From NCBI GenBank assembly GCA_963827965.1, contig CAWHCW010000002.1:141694-205693 (forward strand): a stretch of 64,000 nt of DNA, in the 5' to 3' direction. Positions 41,831-61,225 of the stretch are shown in pieces. Under the pieces are notes generated by a model, which saw only the letters and a list, made by a program, of their open reading frames with translations, did not search any database and was not told the origin of the DNA. Position 1 is the stretch's first letter. Each line of letters starts with the position of its first letter. The stretch is from an uncultured Chloroflexia bacterium (GTDB lineage: Bacteria; Chloroflexota; Limnocylindria; Limnocylindrales; CSP1-4). A program made the translations under genes and the position numbers.

Positions 41831-41893
41831 CCCTCTCGTCTCTCCTCCTGGACCGACGCCCCGGTGTCCGCCGGTTCGCGGCGGCGCCTCGGC

Positions 41894-41899
41894 TAGACT
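41894..41899 (+). promoter_or_regulatory. Candidate -10 box TAGACT 10 nt upstream of the fdhD ATG
   Basis: TAGACTCCGCCGcacgATG. The same 12-mer TAGACTCCGCCG precedes the nuoEF-like start on the opposite strand. Confidence 0.4.
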
Positions 41900-41909
41900 C
41901 CGCCGCACG

Positions 41910-42780
41910 ATGGCCGCTTCGCTTCCTCCCGCCGACCGCTCCACCACGGTCCGCGACGTCCTGGTCGTGCGACCGGGCGGCGCGGAGCGCGCCGCACGGG
42001 GTCGAGCGGCGCCCCGATCGGCTGGCCGGCGAGGAGCCCATGGCGATCCGCGTCGCCGGCCCCGGGCAGGCGCCCGTGGACGTGGCCGTCACGATGCGCA
42101 CACCAGGCAGCGACGCCGAGCTGGCAGTCGGATTCCTCGTCAGCGAGGGGCTCCTCGGCCCGGCGGACCTCGTCGGGCTGACCGTGGAGGTCGGCGACCC
42201 CGCCGCCATCGCCACCCCGGAGAACGAGCTGGTCGTCCGGATCGCCCGCCGGTTCGACGCCGCCGACGTGCCGGCCCGCGCCTTCGTGGCGTCCGCCAGC
42301 TGCGGTATCTGCGGCAAGGCGACGCTCGACGACATCGCGGTCCGCTGCGCCCCCCTCCCTGCGGGGCCGCGCGTCGCCGCCGCCGTCATTGCCGCGCTCC
42401 CCGATCTCCTGCGCGCCGGCCAGGTCGTCTTCGAGCAGACCGGCGGGCTGCACGCAGCGGGGCTGTTCGACCCCGCCGGGACGCTCCTGGCGGCCCGCGA
42501 GGACGTCGGCCGCCACAACGCCCTCGACAAGCTGATCGGCGCGGCGGCGCTGGCCGGGGAGCTGCCGCTCCACGACCGCGTCCTCGCCGTCTCCGGCCGG
42601 GTCAGCTTCGAGATCGTCCAGAAGGCGGCGGTGGCCGGGATCTCGATCGTCGCGGCCGTGTCCGCGCCCACCGACCTTGCCGTCTCGGCCGCGGAGCGGC
42701 TGGGCCTGACGCTCGTCGGGTTCGTTCGCGGCGGCGGCTTCAACGTGTACGCCGGCGAGGAGCGGATCGCCATCGGATGA
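41910..42780 (+). CDS. fdhD: Formate dehydrogenase accessory sulfurtransferase FdhD; one frameshift near 42000
   Basis: MAASLPPADRSTTVRDVLVVRPGG.. / EEPMAIRVAG..VDVAVTMRTPGSDAELAVGFLVSEGLL..ASASCGICGKATLDDI..GGLHAAGLF..REDVGRHNALDKLIG. Confidence 0.85.
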
Positions 42781-42889
42781 CGCCGCGGGACCTGAGCGGC
42801 CTGCGGCTGACCTGCGCGGCCGAGCGCGCCGCGCGCCGTGGCCGAGGCCTCGAGGAGCCGCGGCGCGGCCGGCCTCGGGCCGACCGCTC

Positions 42890-43875
42890 CTGCACGAACT
42901 GGAACCCGAAGCGGCCCTTGATGCAGAGGTGGCCCTCGGTGATCGAGGAGTCCAGCGGCGAGGTCACCTTCACCACGGAGTTGTCCTGGACGTGGAGGGT
43001 CAGGGTGCAGCCGACGCCGCAGTACGGGCAGATCGTGTCCGTCAGCGCCTGCGCCGCCTCGTTCCAGGTGCCGGCAGCCCGCATCTCGTGCTCGGAGCGG
43101 AACATCAGGGCGCCCGTCGGGCAGACCCCGATGCAGTTGCCGCAGTAGACGCAGGCCGACGCCGTGAGCGGGGCGTCGTACTCGGTGGAGATCCGGGCGT
43201 CGAAGCCGCGCCCCGCCACCGCGATCGCGAACGTGTTCTGGGCGTCCGTCGCCGCAGGCCTCCACGCACTTGTAGCAGAGGATGCAGCGCGAGTAGTCGC
43301 GGACGTAGAGGTCGTTGTCCACCTTGACCGGCTGGGCGACGGTCTCCGCGACGGCGCCCGTCGGCGGCTCGTGGTGCCCCGGCTCGCGGAGGTCACGCAT
43401 GACCGCGAGGGCGTGCTCTGCCCGAGGAGCGGGCGGCCCGAACCGGGCGGGGTCCGCCTCGTACTCGGCCATCATCTCGGCCGACGCCCGGCGCCAGCGA
43501 CAGGTCCACCGACGAGCCGAGCAGCTCCAGGACGAGCTTCCGGCTGTGGCGCACCCGCTCCGACCTGGTCTGCACCTCCATCCCGGCCTCCACCGGGCGC
43601 GAACAGGCCGGCACCAGCACCCGGCTCCCCGTCACCTCCACGACGCACACGCGGCAGACGTTGACCGGGGTGAGGCTCTCGAGGTAGCAGAGGGTCGGGA
43701 CGTCGATCCCCTCGGCCCGGCAGGCGTCGAGGATCGTCGAGCCGGCGGGGACGGCGACCGCCCGGCCGTCCAGGGTGACCTCGACGGCCGGCGGCGGGAC
43801 GACGGAGGGTGCGACCGGGATGGCGGTCGGCCGGGCCGGTGGCTCGTAGAAGATCCGCTCGATCTCGGCGCTCAC
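42890..43875 (-). CDS. Fe-S N-terminal module of NAD-dependent formate dehydrogenase alpha subunit (2Fe-2S, 4Fe-4S ferredoxin domains, Mo-enzyme FS0 cluster) ending at the FS0/Mo-domain boundary; 2 frameshifts
   Basis: GGGAGG RBS and GTG overlapping the nuoF-like stop. VEVTLDGRAVAVPAGSTILDACRAEGIDVPTLCYLESLTPVNVCRVCVVEV / YVRDYSRCILCYKCVEACGD / ASACVYCGNCIGVCPTGALM..TICPYCGVGCTLTLHVQDNSVVKVTSP..GHLCIKGRFGFQFVQ. After that there is no further FDH similarity. Confidence 0.75.
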
Positions 43876-45855
43876 GGCGGACCTCCCGCGGCGCCCGCCT
43901 CGGCTGCGCCCGTGGCCGGCCCGGCCGCCGGCGCGCACTGCCTGGCGCCCGCGGCCCGGAAGTCGACGAGCCCGGCGCGGAGCGCCGACTCGATCGCCGT
44001 CGAGGCCGTCTGGCCGAGGCCGCAGATGCTCGCGTCGCGCATCGCCCCTCCCAGGTCGGCAAGGAGCGCCAGCTCGTCGGCGAGCGTCCCCTTGGGCCGT
44101 CCGGCCGCGACCCGCGCCAGCAGCTCCTCCTGGCGCACGGTGCCGATCCGGCAGGGGACGCACTGCCCGCAGGACTCGTCGCGGAAGAAGGCGGCGATCC
44201 GGACGAGGGCGCGCGCCGAGGTCGGCGGTCTCGTCGAAGACCATGACGACGCCCGAGCCGAGGGTCGCGCCCGCGGCGCGCGTCGCCTCGAAGGTGAGCG
44301 GGAGATCGAGGGCCTCGGGGCCGACGAAGACGCCGGCCGCGCCGCCCAGCAGGACCGCCTTCAGCGCCCGCCCGCCGGCGACCCCTCCGGCCAGGGCAAG
44401 CAGCTCCCCGAGCGTCGCCCCGAAGGGGAGCTCGTAGACGCCGGGTCGCTCGACGGCGCCGGAGAGGCAGAAGAGCTTCGTGCCCGTGCTTCCCTCCGTG
44501 CCGATCGCCGCGAAGGCGGCGCCGCCGTCGGCGACGATCGCCGGCACGTTCACCAGCGTCTCGATGTTGTTGACGGCCGTCGGCTTGCCGAACAGGCCGA
44601 CCTCCACCGGGAACGGCGGCTTGTTGCGCGGCTCGCCGCGCCTCCCTTCGATCGAGTTGAAGAGGGCCGTCTCCTCCCCGCAGATGTAGGCGCCGGCTCC
44701 GCGCCGGACCTCGATGTCGAAGGAGAAGCCCGAGCCGAGGATGTCGTCGCCAAGGTAGCCCGCCGCCCGGGCGGTCGCGAGGGCGTGGGCCATGCGGAGG
44801 GCGGAGAGCGGGTACTCGGCCCGCAGGTAGAGGAAGCCGCGCGCGCTGCCGGTGGCGTAGCCCTCGATCGTCATCGCCTCGACGATCGCGTACGGATCCT
44901 CCTCCATGAGCACGCGGTCCTTGAAGGTCCCGGGCTCCGACTCGTCGGCGTTGCAGACGGTGTAGTGGGGAGCGGCTCCCTGGGCGGCGACGGCGGCCCA
45001 CTTGCGACCGGTGGGGAAGGCGGCACCGCCGCGGCCCAGGAGGCGGGAGGCCGAGATCTCCGCGATCACCCCGCCCGGTCCGATCGCGAAGGCCTGCCGA
45101 AGCCCCCGGTAGCCGCCGCTGGCAAGGTAGTCATCGAGGCTGCGCGGGTCGGTGACGCCGGCGCGGGCCAGGAGGCGGAGCCCGGGACCTCCCGCCTGGG
45201 GGATCGAACGGCGGACGTTCTCGAGGTGCGCCTCGTCGGGCGCGGTGACCCTCCGAGGCGGGACGAGCTGGCGCCCCGCGATCGAGCGCTCCAGCTCCTC
45301 GATCACGGACGCCGCGTCGACCGGGGCGACGGCGATCGTCTCGGGGACCAGGCCGGCGACCGTGAAGAGCGCCGTCGGCCCGCGCTCGCAGCGGCCGAGA
45401 CAGGGGGTCCGGAGCCAGGTCGCCTCGCCGCCCAGCGCCGGCTCACCGGCCGGCCCGAGGGCCCGTTCCAGGTCGGCGCAGACGTCCTCTGCCCCGTTGA
45501 GCCGGCAGGCCAGGTCCTCGCAGACGTGGGCCACGACGGGGGGCCGGGGGACCGTCGAGAACATCTGGTAGAAGGCGGCCACGCCGTAGGCCTCGGCGGG
45601 CGGGACGGTCAGGCGCCGGCAGGCGTACTCGAGCGCGGGCTGGCTGATCCAGCCGACGCGAGCCTGGATCGCGTGGAAGACCGGCAGCAGGAGGTGGCGC
45701 CGCTCGCGGGCCGCGTGGCCGCCGCGGGCGAACCGGTCGTCGGCCGGGACGTCGCGGTCGCCCCCCTCCCAGCGCGTGGTCGCCAGGCCCAGGACGCCGT
45801 CGACGGCGGCCCGCTCCTCGGCGGACGCGCGGGGGGCGAGCGTGACAAGGTCCAT
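43872..45855 (-). CDS. NuoE-NuoF-like fusion (FDH diaphorase, FdsG/FdsB-type: 2Fe-2S + FMN/NAD + 4Fe-4S); one frameshift near 44230
   Basis: AHVCEDLACRLNGAE..CLGRCERGP (NuoE-like). GRGGAAFPTGRKW..VCNADESEPGTFKDR..GAGAYICGEETALFNSIEG (NuoF). Then ESCGQCVPCRIGT-type region and ASICGLGQTA in a second frame. Confidence 0.85.
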
Positions 45856-45861
45856 CGGCGG

Positions 45862-45867
45862 AGTCTA
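45862..45867 (-). promoter_or_regulatory. Candidate -10 box TAGACT 6 nt upstream of the nuoEF-like ATG (leaderless start)
   Basis: Minus strand reads GCTTAGACTCCGCCGATGGAC. There is no SD. Confidence 0.4.
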
Positions 45868-46781
45868 AGCGCTCGAACTGCGTCGATCGACATGAAGCCG
45901 TCCGACCCGCGGTGGAGCGGGATGAAGCAGTACGGGTATGCCCGAGCATCCGGCAGGTCGCGATGCGCGTGCTCGACCTGGAACTCGAGGACCTTGCTGC
46001 TCGGCCGCGAGCAGCTGGTCCGGGCGCTGGCGGAGGTCGAGGAAGATGCCCGCGCATGCCGCGCAGGGTGTCCGACATGAAGTCGAACGGCGCCTCGATC
46101 AGGGCGCCAGCCAGGTCGACCGGCGGGACGCCGACCGCGGCGAGCGCCTGCGCCTGCGCGACCTGGCATCGCCGATCCACGTCACCTGCGGCGCCGGCGG
46201 CCTTGTGCATCGCCGCGAACGCCGCCTGGACCGGCGGGCCGTGAGGGCGGGCAGGTTGAAGGATGTTGTAGTAGCCGAACGAGGCTCATGCCCGAGCGGC
46301 GGCAGGTGCGCGAGGCCCTCGAGCTCGCTGAACGCGCGCGGCAGGTAGGTCCGGATCGCCCAGTCGGACGTGTCCTCGAGGAACGCCGTCGTAGTCCTCG
46401 GCCTTCATGAACTCGTGCTCGTCGAACTGGTAACGAGCTGTCGTCGCGGGAGCGACCAGCCCGGCCACTTGCGTCATCCGGTCGCCGAGCGCGGCGCTGG
46501 GCCGCGGGTCGTGCCACGGGCCCGAGGGACTCGTCGGGGCCGAAGCGCAGAGCGGCCGCCTCCACGCAGGCGGCGTCTGGAGCGCGGGGTCGCGGTACAG
46601 GTCGGCGTGGCTGACGCCGCCGAGCTCGGCCGCGAAGTAGCCGAGCCGGCATGCGAGATCGGGATGCGGTCCGGCTGCCCATCGCATAGGCGGTCCGGAT
46701 GCGGGTGGCGCGCTCGACGAGCAGCTGCCTCGGGCGTCTTGGCCAGGTCGGGATTGACCCAGGTCGGTACGTCCGTGTCAT
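45866..46781 (-). pseudogene. Uroporphyrinogen-decarboxylase-family (MtaA/MtvB-like) corrinoid methyltransferase, about 6 frameshifts and apparently lacking its C-terminal third
   Basis: MTRT..LLVERATRIRTAYAM / RLGYFAAELGGVSHADLYRDPAL / YQFDEHEFMKAEDYD / FSELEGLAHLPPLG / EAPFDFMSDTLRGMRG / YPYCFIPLHRGSDGFMS..QFERL. It then runs straight into the nuoEF promoter. Confidence 0.6.
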
Positions 46782-46782
46782 C

Positions 46783-47430
46783 TCAGCCTGCCTCCGTCCA
46801 GCCCTTGGCCAGGTTGACGGCGGCCATGGCGTCGAGCCCGAAGGCGTCGGCGCCGGCGAAGACGCGGACCTGCTCGTCGACGGTCGCCGCCGCCGATCAT
46901 GATCTTCACGCCGGTCGCGCAGCCCGGCGGCGTCGAGCGCCGCGACGGTGTCGCGCATCGCGTCGTACGAGAGGGTGAGGAAGCCCGACAGCGCGACGAC
47001 CGTCGGGCTGGTCGGCCCGGACCGTCGTCGACGAACGTCTCGACCGGGACGTCGACGCCGAGGTCGTGGACCTCGAAGCCGTTCACGTCGAGCATGAAGT
47101 GGACGATGTCCTTGCCGATGTCGTGGATGTCGCCCTGGACCGTGCCGAGGAGGACCTTGCCGAGCTTGGGCGCGTCGCCGTCGGCCGACAAGGTGCGGCT
47201 TCACGAGCGTCGCTGATCTGCGCGGAGCATCTCGCCCGCGAGGATCAGCTCCGGGACGAAGTACTCGCCGCGCCTCGAAGCGCTCGCCGACGATCGCCAT
47301 GGCCGGCCTTGCAGGCGTCGAGGATCTCGAGCGGCGACGTGCCGTCGTCGATGGCATCGGTCGCGAGCCGGATCAGGCGTCCTCGTCCTCCATCTCCGCG
47401 ATGGCGTCGACCAGGTGCGTCGTCGATCAT
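46783..47430 (-). CDS. Corrinoid (B12-binding) protein, MtaC/MtvC-like; at least 4 frameshifts
   Basis: GAGGAGGG RBS. LIRLATDAIDDGTSPLEILDACKAG / MAIVGERFEA / KVLLGTVQGDIHDIGKDIVHFMLDVNGFEVHDLGVDVP (DxHxxG) / PTVVALSGFLTLSYDAMRDTVAALDAAGLRD / NLAKGWTEAG. Confidence 0.75.
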
Positions 47431-47536
47431 GCCCTCCTCGGCGGTTCCTGCCCTGCTGGCCGACAGCGTGACGGGCAGCGGTCGGCGAGCATGCCGCTGG
47501 CGTCCTCCTGGGCGGCGCATGGCGGGCGGCCCGAGC

Positions 47537-48341
47537 TCAGCAGGCCGGCCCGGAACGCGCGGGTGTAGGCGAGGCAGTGGCGGTCGTTGCCGAGGAGGAG
47601 CTCGGTCGCGAGGAGCGTGGCGCGGAGCTCGCGGTCGAGCGGGATCGAGGATCGCGCGTGTCCAGGCCCGCCTCGACCGCGAGGGTCAGGTAGGTGCGGT
47701 TGACGAGGCTCCGGACCGGCAGCCCGAAGCGAGACGTTGGAGAGGCCCTGAGGTCAGGTGGACCTCGGGGAACTCGGCCCGGACCGCGCGCATCGTCGCG
47801 ATGGCGATGTTGGCGCTCTGGATGTTGGTGGAGATGGTCATCACGAGCGGGTCGACGTAGACCCTGTCGTCGGCGATGCCGGCGCGCGGGTCGCCTCGAC
47901 GAGGCGGCGGATGACCGCCATCCGCTCCTCGATGGTGGCCGGGATGCCGCTTGTCGTCCAGGGCGAGCGCGACGACCGCGGCACCGGCTGGCCGCGGCCT
48001 GCGGGAGGACGCCCTCGAGGCGGCGCCGGCTCGCCGGAGATCGAGTTGACGAGCGGCGTCCGTGCGTCACGGCCGGGAGCGCCGCCGCGAGGGCCTTGGG
48101 GTTGGCGGTGTCGATCGAGAGCGGCAGGTCGACGCACGCCCTGGACCGTCTCGACGAGCCAGACGAGGTCCGTCGGGCTCGCGCTCCGGGCTGGTCCCGG
48201 CGTTGACGTCGATCCAGGTGGCGCCGGCCGCGGCCTGGCGCGGTCGCGAGGTCCGCGATGAACGCCGCGTCGCGCGCGACGACGGCCGCGCCGACGCGTC
48301 TTGCGGGTGCCGTTGATCTTCTCGGCGATGATCTGGAACAT
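47537..48341 (-). CDS. Pterin-binding methyltetrahydrofolate:corrinoid methyltransferase (MeTr/AcsE/MtvA-like); at least 4 frameshifts
   Basis: GGAGGGAG RBS. MFQIIAEKINGTRK / GATWIDVNAGTSPE..LVWLVETVQGV / DLPLSIDTANPKALAAAL / IPATIEERMAVIRRLVEATRA / GLSNVSFGLPVRSLVNRTYLTLAVEAGLD. Confidence 0.75.
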
Positions 48342-48346
48342 GCCTG

Positions 48347-50236
48347 TCAGCTCCCTCCGCGGCGCGGCGGCGGGGGAAGAGCATCGATCGCGGCAAACCG
48401 GCGCTGGAAGCCGGGGTACGTGGTGAGCTCGAGGTACGCCGTCCGTGCGCGATCCGGCGGGCGCGGGCCGCTCGCGGAGCGACAGGAGCGCCGCCTGGGC
48501 GCCCGGCCCCGGCGGCGTTGCCGACCTGGACGTAGGCGTGCGCGCGGAAGCCGCGGCAGCAGCCCGATGTCGAGCGCGCTCTCGAGGTTGAGGATAGGTC
48601 CCGAAGGCGCCGGCGACGACCACCTCGTCGACCGTCTCCGGCGACGTCCCGGTCGCCTCGAGGAGGATCGCGATCCCGACCTCGATCGCGCCCTTGGCGA
48701 GCTGGATCTCGTTGACGTCGCCCTGGGTGATGGCGACTGTCGCGGCCGATGCCCGACGCCGAGCGCCGGCGCGAGGATGAACTCGAGGCCGCGTCGCCCC
48801 GTCGCGGACGCCCGGCGCCGCCGCGCTGGAGGCGGCCACGGTCGTCGATCCGCCCGGTCCGGTACAGCTCGGCGACGGCGTCGACGATCCCCGAGCCGCA
48901 GATCCCGACCGCGGGCGCGCCGCCGATCGTCCGGATCTCGGCGCCCGGTCGTCGTCGATCCGGACACGCCTCGATGGCGCCGGTCGCGGCGCGCATCCCG
49001 TCGCGGATGTGGGCGCCCTCGAACGCGGGACCGGAGGCGCACGAGGTCGAGGCGAGGTGGCCCAGGCCGGGCCGCCGCAGGACGATCTCCGTGTTCGTGC
49101 CGATGTCCACGCCGACCGTGACCGCGATCGACCCGGTCGAGGTCCGCGCCGAGGATCATCGCCACGTGGTCGGCGCCCGACGAAGCCGCCGATGTCAGGG
49201 GGGCACGTGGATCCGCGCGTCGGGGCGAGGGCGAGGCCGAGGTCGCGGGCCCGCGACGTCCATCGGGGCCGACGTCGGCGGCGACGAACGGCGCCCGGGC
49301 GAGCTGGCGCGTGGGCAGGCCGAGGAGCAGGTGGTGCATCGCCGTGTTGCCGACGATGCAGGCGTCGACGACCTGGTCGCGCGCCACGCCGGCGCTCGGC
49401 CGCACAGCGAGCCGACGAGCCCATCGAGGCGTGGTCGCGGACCACGCGGGCGAGCTCCGGCCCGCCGTCGTGGCGCGCCGCGTAGGCGAACGCCAGGCGG
49501 CTGATGACGTCCTCGCCGTAGCGCGATCTGGGGGTTCATCACCCTCGGCGCCGCGAGCTCCTCGCCGGTCTCGAGGTCGACGAGGTAGCCCGCGATCTTG
49601 GTCGTGCCGAGGTCGACGGCGAGGCCGACGGGCGGGCGACCCGGCGCAGCGACGCCGACCATGGTGCGGCCCCGGACGTAGGCAGTGAGCGTGCCAGCCG
49701 GTCCGGCGGGCGAGCGGCGTCAGCTGGCGGACCACCGCGGGCCCGGCCGTCGAGCGCGGCGCAGGCCGTGGGCGGATGTCGAGGGCGCGGCCGACCCGGT
49801 CGAAGTCGGAGCGCGGACGTCGAGCGAGGGTGGCGGCCGGCTCGATCTCGTACGGCGCGCACGGCTGCCTCGACGGCGACGGTGCGCGGCAGGCCCGTCG
49901 ACCTGGAGCCGCTGGTCCGGTGACGAGCGACGCCTTGGGGACGTGGACCTTGACGGGCTCCGTCGACGTGCGACCCGGCAGGCGAGCCGCTGCCCGGCGG
50001 CGATCTCGGTCTGTGCGAGAGGAACGGCGGTCGGCGGACTGCGGCGGGGACAGCGGTGCCGGTCCATCACGACGACCCGGCAGCGGCCGCAGGTCCCGTC
50101 GCCGCCGCAGATCGGACGCGAGCCCGATCGCCGGCGCGCCGCGCGGCGTCGAGCAGATCGACGTGCCGGCGGCGACGTCGACGCGCCGGCCGGCCGGCTC
50201 GAAGTCGACTTCGACAGCGCGATCCGGCTCAGCCAC
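48347..50236 (-). CDS. Reductive activator of corrinoid proteins (RACo-type: N-terminal 2Fe-2S ferredoxin + ASKHA ATPase); at least 8 frameshifts
   Basis: VEVDFEPAGRRVDVAAG / ICGGDGTCGRCRVVVMD / TTKIAGYLVDLETGEEL / VVDACIVGNTAMHHLLLGLP / DIGTNTEIVL..SCASGPAFEGAHIRDGMRA / ICGSGIVDAVAELYRTG / ITQGDVNEIQLAKGAIEVGI, spread over all three frames. Confidence 0.75.
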   Translation of the reverse strand: MAEPDRAVEVDFEPAGRRVDVAAGTSICSTPRGAPAIGLASDLRRRRDLRPLPGRRDGPAPLSPPQSADRRSSRTDRDRRRAAARLPGRTSTEPVKVHVPKASLVTGPAAPGRRACRAPSPSRQPCAPYEIEPAATLARRPRSDFDRVGRALDIRPRPAPRSTAGPAVVRQLTPLARRTGWHAHCLRPGPHHGRRRCAGSPARRPRRRPRHDQDRGLPRRPRDRRGARGAEGDEPPDRATARTSSAAWRSPTRRATTAGRSSPAWSATTPRWARRLAVRPSAGVARDQVVDACIVGNTAMHHLLLGLPTRQLARAPFVAADVGPDGRRGPATSASPSPRRADPRAPLTSAASSGADHVAMILGADLDRVDRGHGRRGHRHEHGDRPAAARPGPPRLDLVRLRSRVRGRPHPRRDARRDRRHRGVSGSTTTGRRDPDDRRRARGRDLRLGDRRRRRRAVPDRADRRPWPPPARRRRASATGRRGLEFILAPALGVGHRPRQSPSPRATSTRSSSPRARSRSGSRSSSRRPGRRRRRSTRWSSPAPSGPILNLESALDIGLLPRLPRARLRPGRQRRRGRAPRRRSCRSASGPRPPDRARTAYLELTTYPGFQRRFAAIDALPPPPRRGGS

Positions 50237-50259
50237 GGCCGAGCCCGGCAGCCGCGGCG

Positions 50260-50930
50260 GCGGCGCTGCGGTCGCAGCGAACTGCTCGTACGGCGATCGT
50301 CCCGCCGAGCTCCACGACGACGCACTCCTCGTCCCACGGGCCGAAGAGGAGCTTCTCGACGAGCGATCGGGCTTCCCTCGATCTCCTCGAACCGGAGGCC
50401 GAACCGCTCGGCGTTCGGCGCGCGTAGGCTCGGTAGCGCTCGATGCTCGTAGACGCCGGTGTCGATGAAGGCGACGCGGGTGTAGTTGCGGAGCATCAGC
50501 CTCACCATCCGGTCGGCCTTCGCCTCGCCGTAGCTGCGCGGCGAGCTCGCTGCTGCCTCGTCGAACGGGCTGTCCTCCGACCTCGATCCAGCCCTTGGTC
50601 AGGTAGTAGGTGCCGGGCTCGCGTCGGGCCTGGTCGTCGTACGCCGTCGCGCGAGCCGAGGAAGATCGCGATGCAGTCGTCCACCCGCGGGATCGACGAG
50701 CCGGCAGTGGTCGCCGGAGGCCCGACCACCGCGCGCGAGCAGAGCCCGTAGCCGAGCAGGATCGCGTCGAAGCCGGGCGAGGCGTCGATCGCCGTCCTGG
50801 AGCGCGGCCGTCAGCCCGCCCGGGATGGAGTGGAGCCCGAAGTCGAGGACCTCGCGCGCCATCTCCGGGCATGCGCGGGGCCATCTCCTCGATGAGGGCT
50901 CGCGGCTCTCGGCCCGCGGGAGCGGCCGGC
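50260..50930 (-). CDS. DUF1638-family protein (commonly linked to corrinoid methyltransferase systems); several frameshifts; 5' end merges with the fdhA reading frame
   Basis: EMAREVLDFGLHSIPGGLTAALQD / FDAILLGYGLC / IPRVDDCIAIFLGSR / PGTYYLTKGWIE / MVRLMLRNYTRVAFIDTGVYEH. Confidence 0.6.
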
Positions 50931-50939
50931 TGCGATGCG

Positions 50940-52857
50940 TCCGCCGCGTCCGCGGTCGCAGCCTCTCCACGCGGATCGCCGTGGCCTTGAACTCGGCCGT
51001 GCCGGACTTCGGGTCCGTGGCGTCGATCGTCAGGAGGTTCGTCGCCACGTCGTCCTGGAAGTGGAGGGTCATGAAGGCGAGGCCCGGGCGGAGGCCCTCG
51101 TCCACCCGCACGGGTGCCTCCACGGCCCCCCGGCGGGAGACGACGCGGACCCGCTCGCCTTCGGCCACGCGCAGGCGGGCGGCGTCCTCCGGCGAGAGGT
51201 CGATCGTCTCGCCGCGCCGGAGCGGGGACCGGTAGCCGGCCGTCTGGACGCCCGTGTTGTACGAGTCCAGGCGCCGGCCGGTGGTCAGGCGGATCGGGAA
51301 GTCGGCGTCGAGGCGGTCGACCGGCGGGTCGTGGTCGACCGGGACGAACGGCGCGCGGCTCCCCGGGACAGGGTCCTCCCAGAGCCGGGAGTGGAGGAAG
51401 AGCTCGCCCGGGTGCTGCTCGTCGTAGCAGGGCCACTGGAGCCCGCCCTCGGCCTCCAGGCGGGCGTAGCTCATGCCCGCGTGCACCGGGGAGAGGAGTC
51501 GGACCTCGTTCCAGACGGCCTCGGCGGAGGGCTCGCCCCAGGCGGCGCCGAGGCGCTGCGCCAGGTCGAAGATGATCGCCAGGTCGTCGCGCGCCTCGCC
51601 CGGCGGGCGCAGCGCCGCCCGGACGCGCTGGACGCGCCGCTCGGAGTTGGTGACGGTGCCCTCGGTCTCGGCCCACGCGGCGGCCGCGGGGAGGACGACG
51701 TCGGCGAGCTGGGCGGTCCTCGTCAGGAAGATGTCCTGGACGACGAGGTGCTCGAGGCGCGAGAGGGCTGCGATCGCCTTCGCCTGGTCGGCCTCGGACT
51801 GGACGGGGTTCTCGCCGATCACGTAGAGGGCGGTCAGCTCGCCCTGCTCCATGGCGTGGAACATCCCGGTCAGGTTCCAGCCGCGCTTCGGCGGGACGGA
51901 GACCCCCCACGCCGCGTCGAAGCGGGCCCGGAGCGGGTCGTTCTCCACGTGCTGGAAGCCCGGCAGGCGGTCGGGGAGGGCGCCCATGTCGCCGCCGCCC
52001 TGGACGTTGTTCTGGCCGCGCAGCGGGTTCAGGCCGCTCCCGTAGCGGCCCACGTGCCCGGTCAGCAGCGCCAGCGAGATCAGGGAGATGACGTTGTCGA
52101 CCGCGTTGTGGTGCTCGGTGATCCCCAGCGTCCAGCAGATCATCGCCCGCGGCGCCGTCGCGTAGGCGTGGGCAAGCTCGCGGATGAGCGGGCCCGGGAC
52201 GCCGGTCTCGCGCTCGGCGTACTCGAGGGTGTAGGAGTCGACGCGGGCCCGGTACTCGTCGAAGCCGGTCGTCGCGCGAGCGATGAACTCCCGGTCGTGC
52301 AGGCCGGCGGCGATGATCTCGCGCCCGACGGCGTTGGCCAGGGCGATGTCGCTGCCGACGTCGAGGCCCAGCCAGGCGTCGGCCCACTGGGCGGAGCTGG
52401 TCCGGCGCGGGTCGACGGCGTAGAGGCGGGCGCCGTTGTGGACTCCGCGCAGGACGTGGTGGAAGAAGATCGGGTGGGTCTCGCGCGCGTTCGAGCCCCA
52501 CAGGACGACGAGGTCCGTCTCCTCCACCTCGCGGTAGGAGCTGGTGCCGCCCCCGGCACCGAAGATGGTCGCCAGACCGGCGACCGACGGAGCGTGTCAG
52601 GTCCTGTTGCAGCTGTCGATGTTGTTGCTGCCGACGACCGCCCGGGCCAGCTTCTGGGCCGCGAAGTTGACCTCGTTGGTCGCCTTCGAGCAGGAGAAGC
52701 AGCCGTAGGTGGTGGGACCGTGGCGGTGGACGGCGTCGCGGATCCCCGCGGCGGCCCGGTCCAGGGCCTCGTCCCAGGTCGCCGGGCGGAGGACGCCGGT
52801 CGCGCGGTCGCCGTCGCGGACGAGCGGCTGGGTGAGCCGGACGTAGCCCTTCGCCAT
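50940..52857 (-). CDS. fdhA: Formate dehydrogenase catalytic molybdopterin subunit lacking the FS0 domain, selenocysteine-containing (UGA at 52597-52599); single uninterrupted frame; true stop unclear (next in-frame stop at 50599)
   Basis: GGAGGG 7 nt upstream of ATG 52855-52857. [117 protein letters not shown]. Confidence 0.85.
52567..52585 (-). promoter_or_regulatory. Bacterial SECIS hairpin 11 nt downstream of the fdhA UGA
   Basis: UGA-CACGCUCCGUC-GGUCGCC-GGUCU-GGCGACC. It has the same spacing and GGUCU apical loop as the E. coli fdhF SECIS as I recall it. Confidence 0.8.
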
Positions 52858-52907
52858 GCCTCTTCCCTCCACTGGGGGCCGGGTCACCGCACCCCTTCGT
52901 GCCGCGG

Positions 52908-52913
52908 AGTGTA
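52908..52913 (-). promoter_or_regulatory. Candidate -10 box TACACT about 50 nt upstream of the fdhA (Mo-subunit) ATG
   Basis: Minus strand reads GGGCTACACTCCGCGG..GGAGGGAAGAGGCATG. Confidence 0.25.
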
Positions 52914-53003
52914 GCCCGGGGACGCCCACCCGGCCAGATCGGAGCGCACCCGGTCCGTCCGGGGCGCAGGCCTCCGGGCGGCGCCCGGCGGGGTTCGACC
53001 CGG

Positions 53004-54266: not shown

Positions 54267-54348
54267 GACACGTCCCTCCCCAGGGCGGTGTCGCGGGTCG
54301 GTCTCGCCAGTGGCCGCGCGGTCCGGCGGCCGGAGTGTGGGCCGCGCG

Positions 54349-55512
54349 TCAGAGCCTCCCACGCTGCAGGTCAGTCTCCTGCGACCGGAAGAGCATCGCC
54401 AGTGCCCTTTGGCCTCGTCGACCCGGTGGGCGAGGCTGGCCGCGCGGGCGGTCGTTGCCTTGCTCGAGCGTGATGCCCGGCTCGCCGGCGGCATCGACCC
54501 GTCCCACCCGCCACGAGTCGACGCCGGCCGCCTCCAGCGCATCCTCCACGGCCCGCACTGCGTCCGGGGGCACGGCGGCGAGCAGCCCGCCGGAGGTCTG
54601 CGGGTCGTGGGCGAGCGTCACGAGCGGCTGGGAGACGCCGGGCGCGACGTCCAGCGCCGAGGCGACGAAGCGGCGGTTGTGAGCTGCCCCGCCCGTCTCC
54701 ACGCCGGCCGCCGCCAGCGCGAGCGCCCCCGGGAGGGCCGGGATGGCGGCCGCGTCGAAGACGAGCCGCACCCCCGAGGCCCGTGACATCTCCAGGCCGT
54801 GGCCCAGGAGCCCGAAGCCGGTGACGTCGGTGGCCGCGCGAATCCCGGCCCCCACGAGCACGCCCGCCGCCGCCCGGTTCAGCTGGCGCATGGACGCGAT
54901 CGCAGCGTCGAGGTCCGCTGGTGCCGCCCTCCCCTGGCGGGCCCCGGAGACCAGGAGGCCCGTCCCGAGCGGCTTCGTCAGCAGCAGCACGTCGCCGGGC
55001 CGGGCGCCTCCCTTGCGCAGGAGATGGTCGGGGTGACCGACGCCGACCACGGCCAGGCCGAACTTCGGCTCCGGGTCGCGGATGGTGTGCCCCCCGGCGA
55101 GCGTCCCGCCGGCCTCGCGGACGACCTCCGCCGCGCCGCCGATGATGGCCGCCATCACCTCCGCCGGCAGCTCCTCCGGGAAGGCCGCCACGGAGAGGGC
55201 GAAGAGCACCCGCCCGCCCATCGCGAAGACGTCGGAGCAGGCGTTGGCGGCGGCGATCGCCCCGAACGTCGCCGGGTCGTCAACGAGCGGAGGAAAGAAG
55301 TCCACCGTCCCGATGACGGCGAGGTCGTCCGTCAGGCGATAGACGGCGGCGTCGTCGGGCGGAGACAGGCCGGCGATGAGCTCCGGCGGCGCGGGCGTGG
55401 CGCCGAGGCCGGCGAGGACCTCGGCCAGCACGTCCGCCCCCAGCTTCGCCGCGCACCCGCCGCAGTCGGTCAGGTCGGTCAGCGCGATCGGAGAGGGGTC
55501 GGGCGTGATCAT
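54349..55512 (-). CDS. selD: Selenide, water dikinase (selenophosphate synthetase), Cys-type; intact; last about 35 codons look non-coding, so the true stop may be earlier
   Basis: MITPDPSPIALTDLTDCGGCAAKLGADVL..DDAAVYRL..VDFFPPLVDDPATFGAIAAANACSDVFAMGG..GGHTIRDPEPKFGLAVVG..TKPLGTG..ATDVTGFGLLGH. Confidence 0.9.
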   Translation of the reverse strand: MITPDPSPIALTDLTDCGGCAAKLGADVLAEVLAGLGATPAPPELIAGLSPPDDAAVYRLTDDLAVIGTVDFFPPLVDDPATFGAIAAANACSDVFAMGGRVLFALSVAAFPEELPAEVMAAIIGGAAEVVREAGGTLAGGHTIRDPEPKFGLAVVGVGHPDHLLRKGGARPGDVLLLTKPLGTGLLVSGARQGRAAPADLDAAIASMRQLNRAAAGVLVGAGIRAATDVTGFGLLGHGLEMSRASGVRLVFDAAAIPALPGALALAAAGVETGGAAHNRRFVASALDVAPGVSQPLVTLAHDPQTSGGLLAAVPPDAVRAVEDALEAAGVDSWRVGRVDAAGEPGITLEQGNDRPRGQPRPPGRRGQRALAMLFRSQETDLQRGRL

Positions 55513-55519
55513 GGCCGCG

Positions 55520-55525
55520 ATGATA
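55520..55525 (-). promoter_or_regulatory. Candidate -10 box TATCAT 7 nt upstream of the selD ATG (leaderless)
   Basis: Minus strand reads CCGTATCATCGCGGCCATG. Confidence 0.4.
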
Positions 55526-55555
55526 CGGGCCGGCGGCGACGGCTCCGCCGCGCGC

Positions 55556-55570: not shown

Positions 55571-55667
55571 GGGGGCGGTTGGGTCCCGGTGGGCTCCCCG
55601 GTCTTCAAAACCGGTGCGGTCGCGCGTGACGCGGCCGGGTGGGTTCGACTCCCATGCGCTCCCGCCA
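55571..55667 (+). tRNA. selC: tRNA-Sec (anticodon UCA), 97 nt, CCA encoded
   Basis: Acceptor GGGGGCGG/GCGCUCCC (7 pairs plus a G-G mismatch). 6-bp D-stem GGGUCC-CGGU-GGGCUC. Anticodon arm CCGGU-CUUCAAA-ACCGG. Long variable arm GGUCGCG-CGUGA-CGCGGCC. T-arm GUGGG-UUCGACU-CCCAU. Discriminator G plus CCA. Confidence 0.85.
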
Positions 55668-57338: not shown

Positions 57339-58717
57339 GTGACCGCGCCCGCCGTGCCCCGTCCCCCATCCGTCGAGCGGCTGCTCTCCGCCGCGCGAAC
57401 CCGCGTCGGGGATCGAGAGCACGCGGCGCTGGTCGCCGCGGCCCGCGACGAGATCGCCGTGCGAGCGGGCACGGCTGGCGTCGGCGGCGCCACGCCCCGC
57501 GACATCGGCGCCCTCGCGGACGCGCTGCTCGGCCGCCTTGCAGGCCTCGAGGCGGGTGGCGGGCCGGCCCCCGTCATCAACGCCACGGGCGTGATCGTCC
57601 ACACGAACCTTGGGCGTGCGCCATGGCCGGAGGCCGCCATCCGGGCCGCCGAGGCCGCGACCCGCGAGCCGCTCCTTCCTGGAGCTGGACCCGGCGACTG
57701 GCCGGCGCGGACGCCGCGTATCGCGCGGCCGAGGAGCACCTGCTCGCCCTCAGCGGCGCGGAGGACGCCCTCGTCACGAACAACTGCGCCGCCGCGCTTG
57801 TCCTCGCCGTGGGGCTCGCCGGCCGGAAGGGCGTCGTCGTCGGTCGGGGCGAGCTGGTCGAGATCGGGGGCGGCGTTCGGATTCCGGAGATCGTCCGGCG
57901 GGCCGGAGCGCGCCTGGTCGAGGTCGGGACGACGAACCGCACCCGCGTCGGAGACTACGAAGCGCCGCTCCGCGAAGGCCGCGCCGCGCTGGTCCTCCGC
58001 GTCCACCCCTCCAACTTCACCATGGCCGGCTTCACCGAATCCCCCGACCCGGCGGAGCTCGCCGCCCTCGCCCACGCCCACGGCGCCCTCGTCGTCGACG
58101 ACCTCGGCAGCGGCGCCCTCCTCGACACGGCGGCCTTCGGCCTGGCCCACGAGCCGACCCCGGCCGAGCGCCTGGCGGCCGGCGCGGACCTCGTCGCTCT
58201 TCTCCGGCGACAAGCTCGTCGGCGGGCCCCAGGCGGGGCTGGTCGTCGGCCGCGCGGACCTCGTCGGCCGCCTCCGCAGGGATCCGCTGGCGCGCGCGAT
58301 GCGCCCCGACAAGGCGACCCTCGCCGGCGTGGCCGCCACCCTCGGCCTCTACCGGGCGGGGCTGGCGATCCGGGAGATCCCGGTCTGGCGGATGATCGCG
58401 ACGCCGCCGGACGCCCTGCGGGAGCGGGCGGAGGCGCTGGCGGCTCGCGTGCCGGGGGCCGCGACCGTGGCCCTGGTCGCGACGATCGGCGGGGGATCGC
58501 TGCCGGGCGAGACGCTGCCGTCCTTCGGGATCGCCGTCGCCGCACGATCGGCCAGACGGCTGCTCGACGCGCCTCCGCCGCGGCGACCCGGCCGTCGTCG
58601 GGCGGATCGAGGAGGGGCGGGTCCTCCTCGACCTCCGGACGGTCGATCCGCGGGCCGACGACGAGCTGGCCGGGGCGCTCGACTGGTGCGCTGGCGGCGA
58701 CCGGGGATGCCGGATGA
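57339..58717 (+). CDS. selA: L-seryl-tRNA(Sec) selenium transferase; at least 4 frameshifts
   Basis: PSVERLLSAA..VINATGVIVHTNLGRAPW / ELDPATG.. / AEEHLLALSGAEDALVTNNCAAALVLA..GELVEIGGGVRIPEI..VGTTNRT..VHPSNF / LFSGDKLVGGPQAGLVVG (PLP Lys)..RPDKATLAGVAATL / VVGRIEEGRVLLDLRTV. Confidence 0.85.
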
Positions 58718-60611
58718 CGGTCGTCGTCGGGACCGCCGGTCACATCGACCACGGCAAGACGACGCTCCTGCGGGCGCTCACCGGGATCGACGCCGACCGG
58801 CTTCCCGAGGAGCGGCGGCGGGGGATGACGATCGAGGTCGGCTACGCGCACCTGCGCCTGCCCGACGGCGACGTCCTCGACTTCGTCGACGTCCCCGGCC
58901 ACGACCGGCTCGTCGGGAACATGCTCGTCGGGGCCGGCGAGATCGACGCGGTCCTCCTCGTGGTCGCGGCCGATGACGGGCCGCGGGCGCAGACCCGCGA
59001 GCACGTGGAGCTGCTGGATGCGCTGGGGCTGCGCCACGCGGTGGTGGCCGTGACCAAGGCGGACGCGGTCGATGCGGCGAGGGCCGCGGAGGTCGTCGAT
59101 GCCGTCGGGGACCTCCTCCGGCCAACGACGTTCGCGGGTGCGCCGGTCGTCATCGTCTCGGCCGTGACCGGCACCGGAATCGGGGCGCTGGTCGGGGCGC
59201 TCGTCGCGCTGCGGGACCGTGCCCGCGCCGACGGGGCAGGCGCGGAGGGGCCGGCGCGCCTGGCGATCGACCGGGTCTTCGGCGTCAAGGGCCGTGGCAC
59301 GGTCGTCACGGGCACGCTCCGCGGCGGGCCGCTGACGCGCGGCATGTCGCTGCGCCTGGAGCCGGGCGGGGCGGCCGTGCGGGCGCGGGAGCTGCAGGCG
59401 CGTGGCACGGCCGTCGATGCGGGCGGACCGGGCGGTCGGCTGGCGGCGAACGTGACCGGTGTCGAACGAGCGGCGATCGCGCGCGGCGTCGTCCTCACCG
59501 ACAGACCCGAGCGTCGTGGCGACCGACCGCCTCCTGGTCGCCCTGCGGCCGGCGCTTGCGCTCACGGCGGGGGGAGCCCGGCGACGGGACGCGATCGCGG
59601 GCGGCACGGCCGTCCGGCTGCACCTCGGGACGGCGCAGGTGGCGGGCGTCGTGCGCCGGTCGAGACGCGACGTCGACGACCTGCCGGCCGGCGAGGCGAC
59701 CGCGATCCTGCGGCTGGCGGCCCCGATCGCGGCGGCGCCCGGGGACCGGTTCGTGCTCCGGCGACCGTCCCCGGCCGAGCCGCTGGCCGGCGGCCGCGTC
59801 CTGGATCCCCGGCCGCCCTCGGGTGCCGCCTGGCGGCGCGCGACCAGCGCGGACGTGGGCGCCCTGGCCCGGGCGGCGAGCCCGGAAGAGCGCGGCGTGG
59901 CTCTCCTGTCGCTGCACGGGGCACTCCCCCGGGGGCACGCGGCCGGCGGGTCGTTCCCGGCGGGTTCGACGGTGGCGGCCGGTCGCCTGGCCCTGTCCCC
60001 GGGCGTCGCGTCCGCGGTCGCCGCCGAGGCGCTCGCCGCGGTCGACACGGCTCCCGGCGACGGGATCCTGCTCGCCGAGCTGCGGGGACGCCTGGGCCGT
60101 GCCCTCCGCCGGCGGACGTCGGTCGACGCCGAGACGGCAGCAGGCGCCGGTGGCGCGCTCGTCGAGGCCCTCGTCGCGGCCGGCCGGCTGGCGCGGACCG
60201 GGGACCTCGTCCACCTGCCGGGCCGGGCCGTGGGCCTGGCGCCGGAGGTCGAGGCGGCGATGGACAGGCTGACGGCGATCCTCGACGCGCCTGCCCCCCC
60301 GGGCCTCGCCGAGGCCGCGCGCTCGGCTGCGTGCCCGCCGGCGGGGATCGCCGCCCTCGAGGCGGCCGGCCGGATCGTCCGCGTCGAGGAGGACCTCGCC
60401 TGGTCGGCGCCGGCCTTCGCCCGCCTCGCAGGCGGCGGCCCTCCGGCTCGTCGCCGCGGGCCCGCTCACGCCGGCGTCCCTGCGCGACGCCACCGGCACC
60501 AGCCGCAGGTACGTCATGGCCCTCCTCGAGGAGCTCGACCGGCGGGGCGTGCTGGCCCGGACGCCCGACGGGCATGTCCCCGGGCCGCGAGCGGGGACGG
60601 CGGGGAGGTGA
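58714..60611 (+). CDS. selB: Selenocysteine-specific translation elongation factor; 2 frameshifts (about 59500, 60430)
   Basis: ATGA overlap with sel[65 protein letters not shown]-terminal winged-helix region [32 protein letters not shown] in another frame. Confidence 0.85.
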
Positions 60612-61225
60612 GCGTTCCGCGCGTGACCGGCATCGTCCTGGCCGGCGGGCGCTCGACCCGCTTCGGCGGCGACAAGCTGGCGGCGCAGGTCCGCGGTCGA
60701 CCGCTCCTGCACCTGGCGATCGCCGCCGTGGCCGCGGTCGCCGACGAGGTCGTGGTCGTCGTCGGGCTCGACGGGCCCGAACCGGCGCTGCCGCCCGACC
60801 TCCCGGTGCCGGTCGTCGTGGCGCACGATGCCGTCGCCGGCCAGGGCCCCCTCGCCGGGCTCGCGGCGGGCCTCGCCTCCGCCTCCCACCCGCTGGCCCT
60901 GCTCGTGGGAGGCGACCAGCCCGCCCTGCGACCCGAGCTCCTCCGCGAGCTCCTGCGCGGGCTCGCCCCGGGCGCCGCCGATCCGCCGCTCGACGTCATC
61001 GGGCTCGAGGAGGACGGGACCCTGCGGCCGCTCCCGGTCGCCCTCCGGGTCGCGACGGCCGGCCCGGCCGCGGAGGTCGCGCTGGCCGGCGGAACGCGGA
61101 GCCTCGTGGGGCTGTTCGGCGGGCTTCGCGCCGCCACGCTGGACCCGGGGCGGTGGCGCGAGCTCGACCCCGCTGGAGACTCGCTGCGGGACGTGGACAC
61201 GCGCGACGACCTCCAGCGGTCCTGA
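60608..61225 (+). CDS. mobA: Molybdenum cofactor guanylyltransferase
   Basis: GTGA overlap with selB. VTGIVLAGGRSTRFGGDKLAAQVRGRPLL..GQGPLAGLAAGL..LLVGGDQPAL. Intact. Confidence 0.8.
   Translation: MSVPRVTGIVLAGGRSTRFGGDKLAAQVRGRPLLHLAIAAVAAVADEVVVVVGLDGPEPALPPDLPVPVVVAHDAVAGQGPLAGLAAGLASASHPLALLVGGDQPALRPELLRELLRGLAPGAADPPLDVIGLEEDGTLRPLPVALRVATAGPAAEVALAGGTRSLVGLFGGLRAATLDPGRWRELDPAGDSLRDVDTRDDLQRS

Follow-up and report, generated by a model that had tools for sequence, protein, structure and literature searches.

A probable NAD(H)-linked selenocysteine formate dehydrogenase with a naturally split alpha subunit and a permuted gene order in Chloroflexota and other bacterial phyla

The proximal [4Fe-4S] cluster, FS0, is part of the archetypal catalytic subunit of molybdenum/tungsten (Mo/W) formate dehydrogenases (FDHs), and its insertion is a prerequisite for insertion of the molybdenum cofactor (PMC5123574). 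Reviews list enzymes that deviate by having lost the cluster or gained Fe-S extensions, but none in which it is relocated to another chain (PMC5123574; PMC7171172). Among the known relatives, everything is fused in FdsA, Fdh1A, and ForC, whereas HylA/FdhF2 has a separate NuoG-like module, with FS0 kept on the catalytic subunit. Here we describe a locus in a stretch of 64,000 nucleotides (hereafter the window) from an uncultured Chloroflexia bacterium (assembly GCA_963827965.1, contig CAWHCW010000002.1, positions 141,694 to 205,693). Its three genes are called fdhC for the Mo/W catalytic subunit, nuoEF for a NuoE-NuoF fusion, and fdhN for an Fe-S subunit resembling the N-terminal part of NuoG. 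Judging from its sequence, the locus likely encodes a cytoplasmic, nicotinamide adenine dinucleotide (NAD(H))-linked, selenocysteine (Sec) Mo/W FDH, whose alpha subunit is naturally split and whose gene order is circularly permuted to fdhC-nuoEF-fdhN.

The FdsABG(D) enzymes of Rhodobacter capsulatus and Cupriavidus necator (PDB 6TGA, 6VW7) are built from the same modules as this locus, namely NuoE-like, NuoF-like, NuoG-N-like, FS0, and bis(pyranopterin guanine dinucleotide) (bis-PGD). As in FdsABG, a NuoF-like subunit for flavin mononucleotide (FMN) and NAD(H) and a NuoE-like 2Fe-2S module are encoded beside the alpha genes, and a maturation gene of the FdhD/FdsC type is present; no fdsD was seen at the locus. 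Distinct from FdsA, the alpha subunit here is encoded by two genes that divide it after FS0, so that the Fe-S extension is not fused to the catalytic subunit but encoded by the separate fdhN. Further differences are the gene order (Mo, NuoEF, Fe-S instead of fdsG-B-A), Sec in place of Cys, and the fusion of NuoE with NuoF. The on-pathway set A1, A2, A3, and A5 is fully conserved, whereas the His-ligated A4 cluster is absent; in R. capsulatus FDH this cluster sits at the dimer interface, outside the route from Mo to FMN, and is bound by the motif H-x3-C-x2-C-x5-C (PMC7171172). Fdh1AB, the tungsten FDH of Methylorubrum extorquens (PDB 7E5Z, 7VW6), has a NuoE-NuoF fusion as its beta subunit, as here, and Fdh1A matches FdhC at 420 bits. 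However, Fdh1A is a single chain of 989-995 aa that includes the Fe-S extension and FS0; its active site uses cysteine. In HylABC-FdhF2 of Gottschalkia acidurici, the NuoG-N-like HylA is separate from a Sec FdhF-type catalytic subunit, as here (PMC5736913). FS0 nevertheless resides on the catalytic subunit in that system and in FdhF2 of the hydrogen-dependent CO2 reductase (HDCR), whereas here it is found on the Fe-S subunit, and the C-terminal ferredoxin domain of the HylABC flavin subunit is missing here. Another Mo/W-bisPGD unit naturally split into two polypeptides is formylmethanofuran dehydrogenase FwdB/FwdD, in which the split falls at the C-terminal domain IV and FS0 stays with the pterin-binding part.

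A homolog scan with FdhC was carried out over one genome per GTDB species and repeated with an Isosphaeraceae ortholog. The two scans together gave 113 distinct fdhC loci, of which 85 were long enough to hold all three genes. The active-site codon and the break-point details were checked over the 80 loci of the first scan. The order fdhC, nuoEF, fdhN on one strand was found in every one of the 85 loci. The hosts belong to Chloroflexota, Acidobacteriota, Planctomycetota, Methylomirabilota/Rokubacteria, Actinomycetota (Gaiellales), Eremiobacterota, and Dormibacterota, and the loci come from short-read contigs (SPAdes/MEGAHIT-named), chromosome-level metagenome-assembled genomes (MAGs), and the genome of a cultured isolate, Aquisphaera insulae JC669 (locus L083). 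The closest relative of the window, locus L001, is syntenic with it on both flanks and has only 22 nt between fdhC and nuoEF. In 26 loci, unrelated genes keep fdhC and nuoEF apart by more than 1 kb, and in most Chloroflexota loci the conserved box GCTACACTC lies 33-97 nt 5' of fdhC; therefore, the products must meet as separate proteins. On this sequence pattern, the fdhC and nuoEF-fdhN halves appear to be expressed separately. An earlier note on this DNA, made from the sequence alone, had put forward one broken alpha gene that would be rejoined by circularising or swapping a ~10-kb block. This proposal does not hold, because the order and the break point are identical in all 85 loci and each piece has its own start, its own stop, and its own ribosome-binding site (RBS) or promoter signals. 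The comparison with related genomes, which the note had named as a check, gave the same gene order, and misassembly or a private rearrangement was excluded on the synteny with L001 and the conserved order. The fallback of the same note, a functional fission at the boundary between FS0 and the Mo domain, is backed by the conserved layout and by an exact tiling of FdsA.

The complementarity of the two polypeptides was assessed against solved structures. Residues 30-325 of FdhN align with residues 24-302 of R. capsulatus FdsA (E=1e-42), and residues 7-630 of FdhC align with residues 308-931 of FdsA and 61-687 of Escherichia coli FdhF. As judged by these alignments, FdhN and FdhC tile FdsA from 24 to 931 with no overlap and nothing missing, and the break falls in the linker that joins structural domain I, which holds FS0, to domain II. 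Neither an overlap of the pieces nor an omission of essential residues, either of which the earlier note held would speak against a shared alpha subunit, was seen in the FdsA alignments. The NCBIfam Fdh-alpha equivalog model TIGR01591 is split between the two genes in the same manner, with positions 1-49 on FdhN (49 bits) and positions 53-672 on FdhC. The nearest fused relative, P0126 (46% identity), is continuous across the junction (...GRYAYDFVHHPERLTRPLIR). Among the loci of the first scan, FdhC begins 3-8 residues before RLTxPLVR, several with an in-frame stop 1-12 codons upstream, and in most of them FdhN ends no more than 20 codons past GRFGFxFVQ. The ratio of nonsynonymous to synonymous substitution rates (dN/dS) is 0.13-0.26 for fdhC and 0.19-0.30 for fdhN; both genes are therefore under purifying selection.

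Two ways of joining the halves were considered and rejected. Intein halves are longer than the short tails seen here (at most ~20 residues for FdhN in most loci, and a head of 3-8 residues for FdhC), which argues against split-intein trans-splicing. Read-through or a programmed frameshift joining fdhC and fdhN would need a different gene order.

Genes in the window were mapped by third-position GC tracking and translations, since mechanical lists of open reading frames (ORFs) are uninformative at its G+C content of ~74%. Pfam was run on stop-to-stop segments of the translations. The coordinates are collected in Table 1.

Table 1. Features of the fdhC-nuoEF-fdhN locus and its surroundings in the window.
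Feature	Position	Strand	Description
fdhC	52857 to ~50959	-	Mo/W-bisPGD catalytic subunit; 633 codons up to ...AIRVERL
fdhC start	ATG 52857-52855	-	GGAGGG RBS at 52870-52865, 7-nt spacer
fdhC -10-like box TACACT	52913-52908	-	GCTA(C/G)ACTC-type box spans 52907-52915
In-frame UGA (selenocysteine codon)	52599-52597	-	Sole interruption of the fdhC frame
SECIS-like hairpin GGUCGCC-GGUCU-GGCGACC	52567-52585	-	Begins 11 nt past the UGA; within the minimum-free-energy fold
Corrinoid-dependent methyltransferase cassette, ~5 kb	45872-50937	-	Between fdhC and nuoEF
TAGACT box	45861-45870 region	-	6 nt 5' of the nuoEF ATG
nuoEF	43872-45855	-	NuoE-NuoF fusion, ~660 aa; 2Fe-2S, FMN/NAD(H) site, 4Fe-4S
fdhN	42850-43875	-	~340 aa; 2Fe-2S, two 4Fe-4S, C-terminal FS0 (CPYCGVGC...LCIKG)
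fdhD	41911-42780	+	FdhD/NarQ sulfurtransferase, FDH maturation; convergent with fdhN
selD-like	54349-55554	-	AIRS and AIRS_C domains; syntenic in L001
tRNA-Sec	55571-55667	+	Anticodon TCA; 68.4 bits
selA, selB, MobA-like NTP transferase	57719-61105	+	selA frameshift near 58199; selB frameshift between 59208 and 59590

The Pfam domains of FdhC are Molybdopterin (PF00384, 237 bits) and Molydop_binding (PF01568, 93.5 bits), and nothing else. Molybdop_Fe4S4 (PF04879) was not found in FdhC, and in all loci examined FS0 is not on the pterin polypeptide. The active-site motifs of FdhC are NRT-U-HAPS and PLRGQ; it holds the pterin domains, the Sec/Cys-His pair, and the catalytic Arg of an Mo/W-bisPGD FDH catalytic subunit. 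A TGA occupies the active-site codon in 80 of 80 loci. The PDB matches of FdhC to FDHs have E-values of 1e-125 to 1e-142. The top match is FdhF of HDCR (PDB 7QV7, 479 bits), and FdsA is matched at E=1e-125, and by FdhN at E=1e-47, neither of which is attributable to chance; the formylmethanofuran dehydrogenase-type model TIGR03129 matches weakly. The selenocysteine insertion sequence (SECIS)-like hairpin lies in a 68-nt stretch that is, as a whole, no more stable than shuffles (z = -1.35); we take its spacing and loop to be like those of the E. coli fdhF SECIS. A Cys version of the FS0-less Mo subunit (P0137 of the representative library, motif NRTCHAPS) is 68% identical to FdhC, and its independently called start is the same as that of FdhC. 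As P0137 uses Cys, the split is not confined to selenoproteins. A further protein, P0234 (620 aa, 37% identical to FdhC), has no FS0 and neither Cys nor Sec at the ligand position.

The positions, the minus strand, and the motifs given in the earlier note are right, including the ATG at 52857, GGAGGG-N7, TACACT, and the end of the Fe-S piece at ~42888. The Mo piece had also been described there as one clean frame broken only by the UGA. The UGA is indeed the sole interruption over 633 codons, but the window has no stop after ...VERL, and the frame stays open to 50599, entering the DUF1638 start of the inserted cassette. The equivalent gene of L001 has a TGA 15 codons past VEKL.

NuoEF holds 2Fe-2S_thioredx, Complex1_51K, SLBB, and NADH_4Fe-4S domains in one fusion protein. 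Downstream of it, as the earlier note had also placed it, lies the Fe-S piece with FS0: the GTG start of fdhN overlaps the nuoEF stop (GTGA), and the product ends ...LCIKGRFGFQFVQE at ~42888. The Pfam domains of FdhN are Fer2_4, a 2x[4Fe-4S] ferredoxin-like region, and Molybdop_Fe4S4. Ligands for every on-pathway cluster are retained in FdhN, i.e., for the 2Fe-2S cluster, both ferredoxin-type 4Fe-4S clusters, and FS0, and in the FdhN alignment the four FS0 cysteines and the adjacent Lys (CIKG) are invariant or nearly so. Nearly all of the 120 best FdhN homologs are 298-360 aa long (two are 380-392 aa); they have Fer2_4, Fer4, and Molybdop_Fe4S4, and all of them lack a Molybdopterin domain. The A4 motif was not found in any of 18 aligned FdhN sequences; at its position (~43480-43350, minus strand), fdhN has a cysteine-free variable insert, often GHH(H/E), which is deleted in L083, L063, and L078. 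In one Gaiellales MAG (L076, 11564-14341), NuoE, NuoF, and the Fe-S/FS0 part of FdhN form one ORF of ~931 aa, and the Mo subunit is separate.

From the gene content we infer complex formation, an electron path, NAD specificity, and activity as follows. FdhC would carry the bis-PGD cofactor and the Sec/His/Arg active site and no Fe-S cluster. FdhN would carry a [2Fe-2S] cluster, two [4Fe-4S] clusters, and at its C-terminus the proximal FS0 [4Fe-4S] cluster with its adjacent conserved Lys, and NuoEF would carry FMN, one [4Fe-4S] cluster, and one [2Fe-2S] cluster. FdhC would dock onto the FS0 domain of FdhN. Formate would be oxidised at the Sec-Mo/W-bisPGD centre on FdhC, and the electrons would pass from the Mo/W-pterin to FS0 on FdhN, in trans. 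From there they would reach the NuoF 4Fe-4S cluster, FMN, and NAD+ by way of both 4Fe-4S clusters and the 2Fe-2S cluster of FdhN. The reverse direction, CO2 reduction, may also occur.

Several points weigh against a split, NAD(H)-linked FDH. FdhC scores 637.6 bits against TIGR01591, which is under the curated cutoff of 666.25. A prior description may exist, since the literature covered was open-access text; in it, including a 2026 Chem Rev review of FDHs, no account of FS0 on a separate polypeptide was found, in agreement with the earlier note, whose author knew of none. NuoEF is marginally nearer to Bfu-type HydB (7t2r_B, 407 bits; 7q4v_B, 395 bits) than to C. necator FdsB (377 bits), with Fdh1B at 294 bits, so that cofactor specificity and stoichiometry are uncertain. 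Lastly, nuoEF, fdhN, selA, and selB are all frameshifted in the window, and if these shifts were real, this copy would be dead.

The HydB matches bear on an improbable alternative, in which the locus encodes an electron-bifurcating FDH of the Bfu/HylABC-FdhF2 type that uses ferredoxin as well as NAD. HydB of bifurcating hydrogenases gives the best solved-structure matches of NuoEF, and the separate NuoG-N-like Fe-S subunit recalls HylA (PMC5736913). However, the match to 7t2r_B ends at residue 517 of 597, and Pfam found no Fer4-type domain in NuoEF past the NuoF 4Fe-4S region; the C-terminal ferredoxin-like 2x[4Fe-4S] domain of HydB is absent. The ferredoxin-like clusters at the C-terminus of Bfu HydB are reportedly the feature that separates bifurcating from non-bifurcating enzymes. 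In addition, FS0 is not on FdhC, and the hosts appear to be mostly aerobic soil lineages. A non-bifurcating enzyme is favoured because the predicted NuoEF lacks the C-terminal ferredoxin domain.

The frameshifts raise the question of decay. nuoEF and fdhN can be read in the window solely via frame changes. Relative to L001, extra bases are found at 44213 in nuoEF and at 43483 and 43251 in fdhN, and relative to L154 an extra C at 42852 turns the fdhN stop TGA into TCGA. Outside the cassette, frame-breaking insertions occur about once per kb (53403, 44213, 43483, 43251, 42852, selA, and selB). If these and the cassette shifts were true mutations, the family would be real but the window copy decaying and non-functional. 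The inserted bases are not homopolymer extensions, which would suit such decay, but we hold it unlikely. The flanking shifts that were compared with relatives are all +1 insertions, and the cassette, compared with its homolog L155, shows 65 one-base and 12 two-base insertions against 13 deletions of 1-2 nt, i.e., ~1 per 60 nt at a ratio of ~6:1. Bacterial pseudogenes decay chiefly through deletion, and long-read consensus errors can be insertion-biased. A strain with an intact 339-aa FdhN (P0001, 98% identical) is also at hand: its SPAdes contig, L154, is 97.7% identical to the window, does not have the extra C at 43483 and 43251, and reads TGA where the window has TCGA. Moreover, fdhC (1.9 kb), selD, and fdhD are intact, and the G+C content at third codon positions stays at 0.95-1.0 in the shifted genes. 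Because the error profile is insertion-biased, the window frameshifts are most likely long-read consensus errors and not gene decay. As a speculation, the denser errors of the cassette might come from a variant that only part of the population carries and that was covered at low depth.

It is very unlikely that FdhC and FdhN do not belong to one enzyme, with the cluster-less FdhC serving another partner and NuoEF-FdhN forming a HoxEFU-like diaphorase in which FS0 is a structural relic like N7. Cluster-less Mo-bisPGD enzymes do exist, N7 in NuoG is off-pathway (PMC5123574), and the two units are separated by unrelated genes in the 26 loci mentioned above. Yet the linkage is strict in every locus across seven phyla, the FS0 ligands and the adjacent Lys are kept in FdhN, the split lies precisely in the linker of domains I and II and leaves nothing out, and no other redox partner gene is conserved beside fdhC in the related loci and the window. 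Least of all can we credit that a single fdsA-type gene was cut by an assembly artefact or a genome-specific rearrangement that made the block order of the window wrong or unique: the assembly is error-prone, with many single-base insertions, and the 5-kb block between the pieces is far denser in errors than its flanks, but order and break point recur in 85 independent loci, among them contigs from short reads and the genome of an isolate, both flanks of L001 are syntenic with the window and its fdhC and nuoEF lie 22 nt from each other, and every gene has its own start and stop.

The surroundings of the split FDH genes fit a working selenocysteine FDH, with fdhD and a MobA-like gene also close by. 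As in bacterial selenoprotein FDHs, the UGA stands at the metal-ligand position, a hairpin follows it, and tRNA-Sec, selD, selA, and selB are adjacent (Table 1); tRNA-Sec is also close to fdhC in L001, L002, and L008. A -10-like box of the form GCTA(C/G)ACTC or GCTTAGACTC was seen at 52907-52915 (minus), 45861-45870 (minus), and 41892-41900 (plus) in the window and at 11963-11971 in L001. It precedes fdhC, nuoEF, and fdhD. At nuoEF and fdhD it lies 6-10 nt before the ATG, with no Shine-Dalgarno sequence, which suggests leaderless mRNAs for these two genes. TAGACT boxes stand 6-8 nt before the nuoEF ATG in both the window and L001. A match to the Rfam c-di-GMP-II-GAG riboswitch (RF03169; 55.1 bits, gathering score 40) was observed at 54287-54368 (minus), just 5' of a gene of unknown function (54081-53004) between selD and fdhC. 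It lies inside ~380 nt that are missing from L001, and four related loci (L001, L002, L008, and L013) gave no such match.

The cassette between fdhC and nuoEF encodes DUF1638, a RACo activator, a pterin-binding methyltransferase, a B12-binding (corrinoid) protein, and a URO-D-like methyltransferase. Its part at 45872-50898 is collinear with an intact homolog in a Chloroflexota MAG (L155, 3738-8675), where it is not beside FDH genes. L001 does not have the cassette, its fdhC and nuoEF being separated by 22 nt, and the comparison thus marks the cassette as a lineage-specific insertion and not an ancestral part of the operon. Neither blastn nor tblastx found a homolog of the 5-kb insert in the first 80 FDH loci, the tblastx matches being compositional noise at 74% GC. 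The earlier note's long operon, running from the Mo subunit through the corrinoid genes to nuoEF and the Fe-S gene, is thus not sustained: the block is absent from L001, relatives carry other cargo, and nuoEF is preceded by a -10-like box of its own. Demethylation may plausibly be linked in function, via methyl-tetrahydrofolate, to formate. At the same junction, Limnocylindria-like Chloroflexota (L002, L006, L011, L026, L038, L050, and others) hold unrelated cargo of 0.5-7 kb, including a DUF2339 membrane protein, an acyltransferase, two-component systems, a Na/Ca exchanger, and a serine dehydratase. This variety suggests that the fdhC-nuoEF junction is a recurrent insertion site.

The chances are about even that these loci represent a widespread, hitherto undescribed class of Mo/W FDH in soil Chloroflexota, Acidobacteriota, Planctomycetota, Methylomirabilota, Actinomycetota, and candidate phyla, with FS0 and the pterin on different polypeptides. 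Judging by the permuted order, the layout may have arisen when an fdsGBA-type operon was duplicated in tandem and its outer parts were then lost. Gene callers truncate the Mo subunit at the UGA, and the Fe-S subunit homologs are currently named "2Fe-2S iron-sulfur cluster-binding protein", "YjgC", or "HndD". With FdhC below the NCBIfam cutoff, cut at the UGA, and paired with a generically named Fe-S subunit, the capacity for formate oxidation is likely under-called in abundant soil lineages. If FS0 and the pterin are indeed on different chains, the first electron-transfer step would cross a subunit interface, and insertion of the Mo cofactor could not require prior insertion of FS0 in the same chain. 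In NarG and DmsA, FS0 has been reported to be inserted before the molybdenum cofactor. Here, the Mo subunit might mature on its own with FdhD and only afterwards join a flavin/Fe-S module that is already assembled. A natural, conserved enzyme whose FS0 is provided in trans would offer a ready test of the FS0-first maturation model and of the tolerance of the pterin-to-FS0 step to a protein interface. It would also provide a modular catalytic subunit for the engineering of CO2 reduction, for which a cultured host, Aquisphaera insulae, exists.

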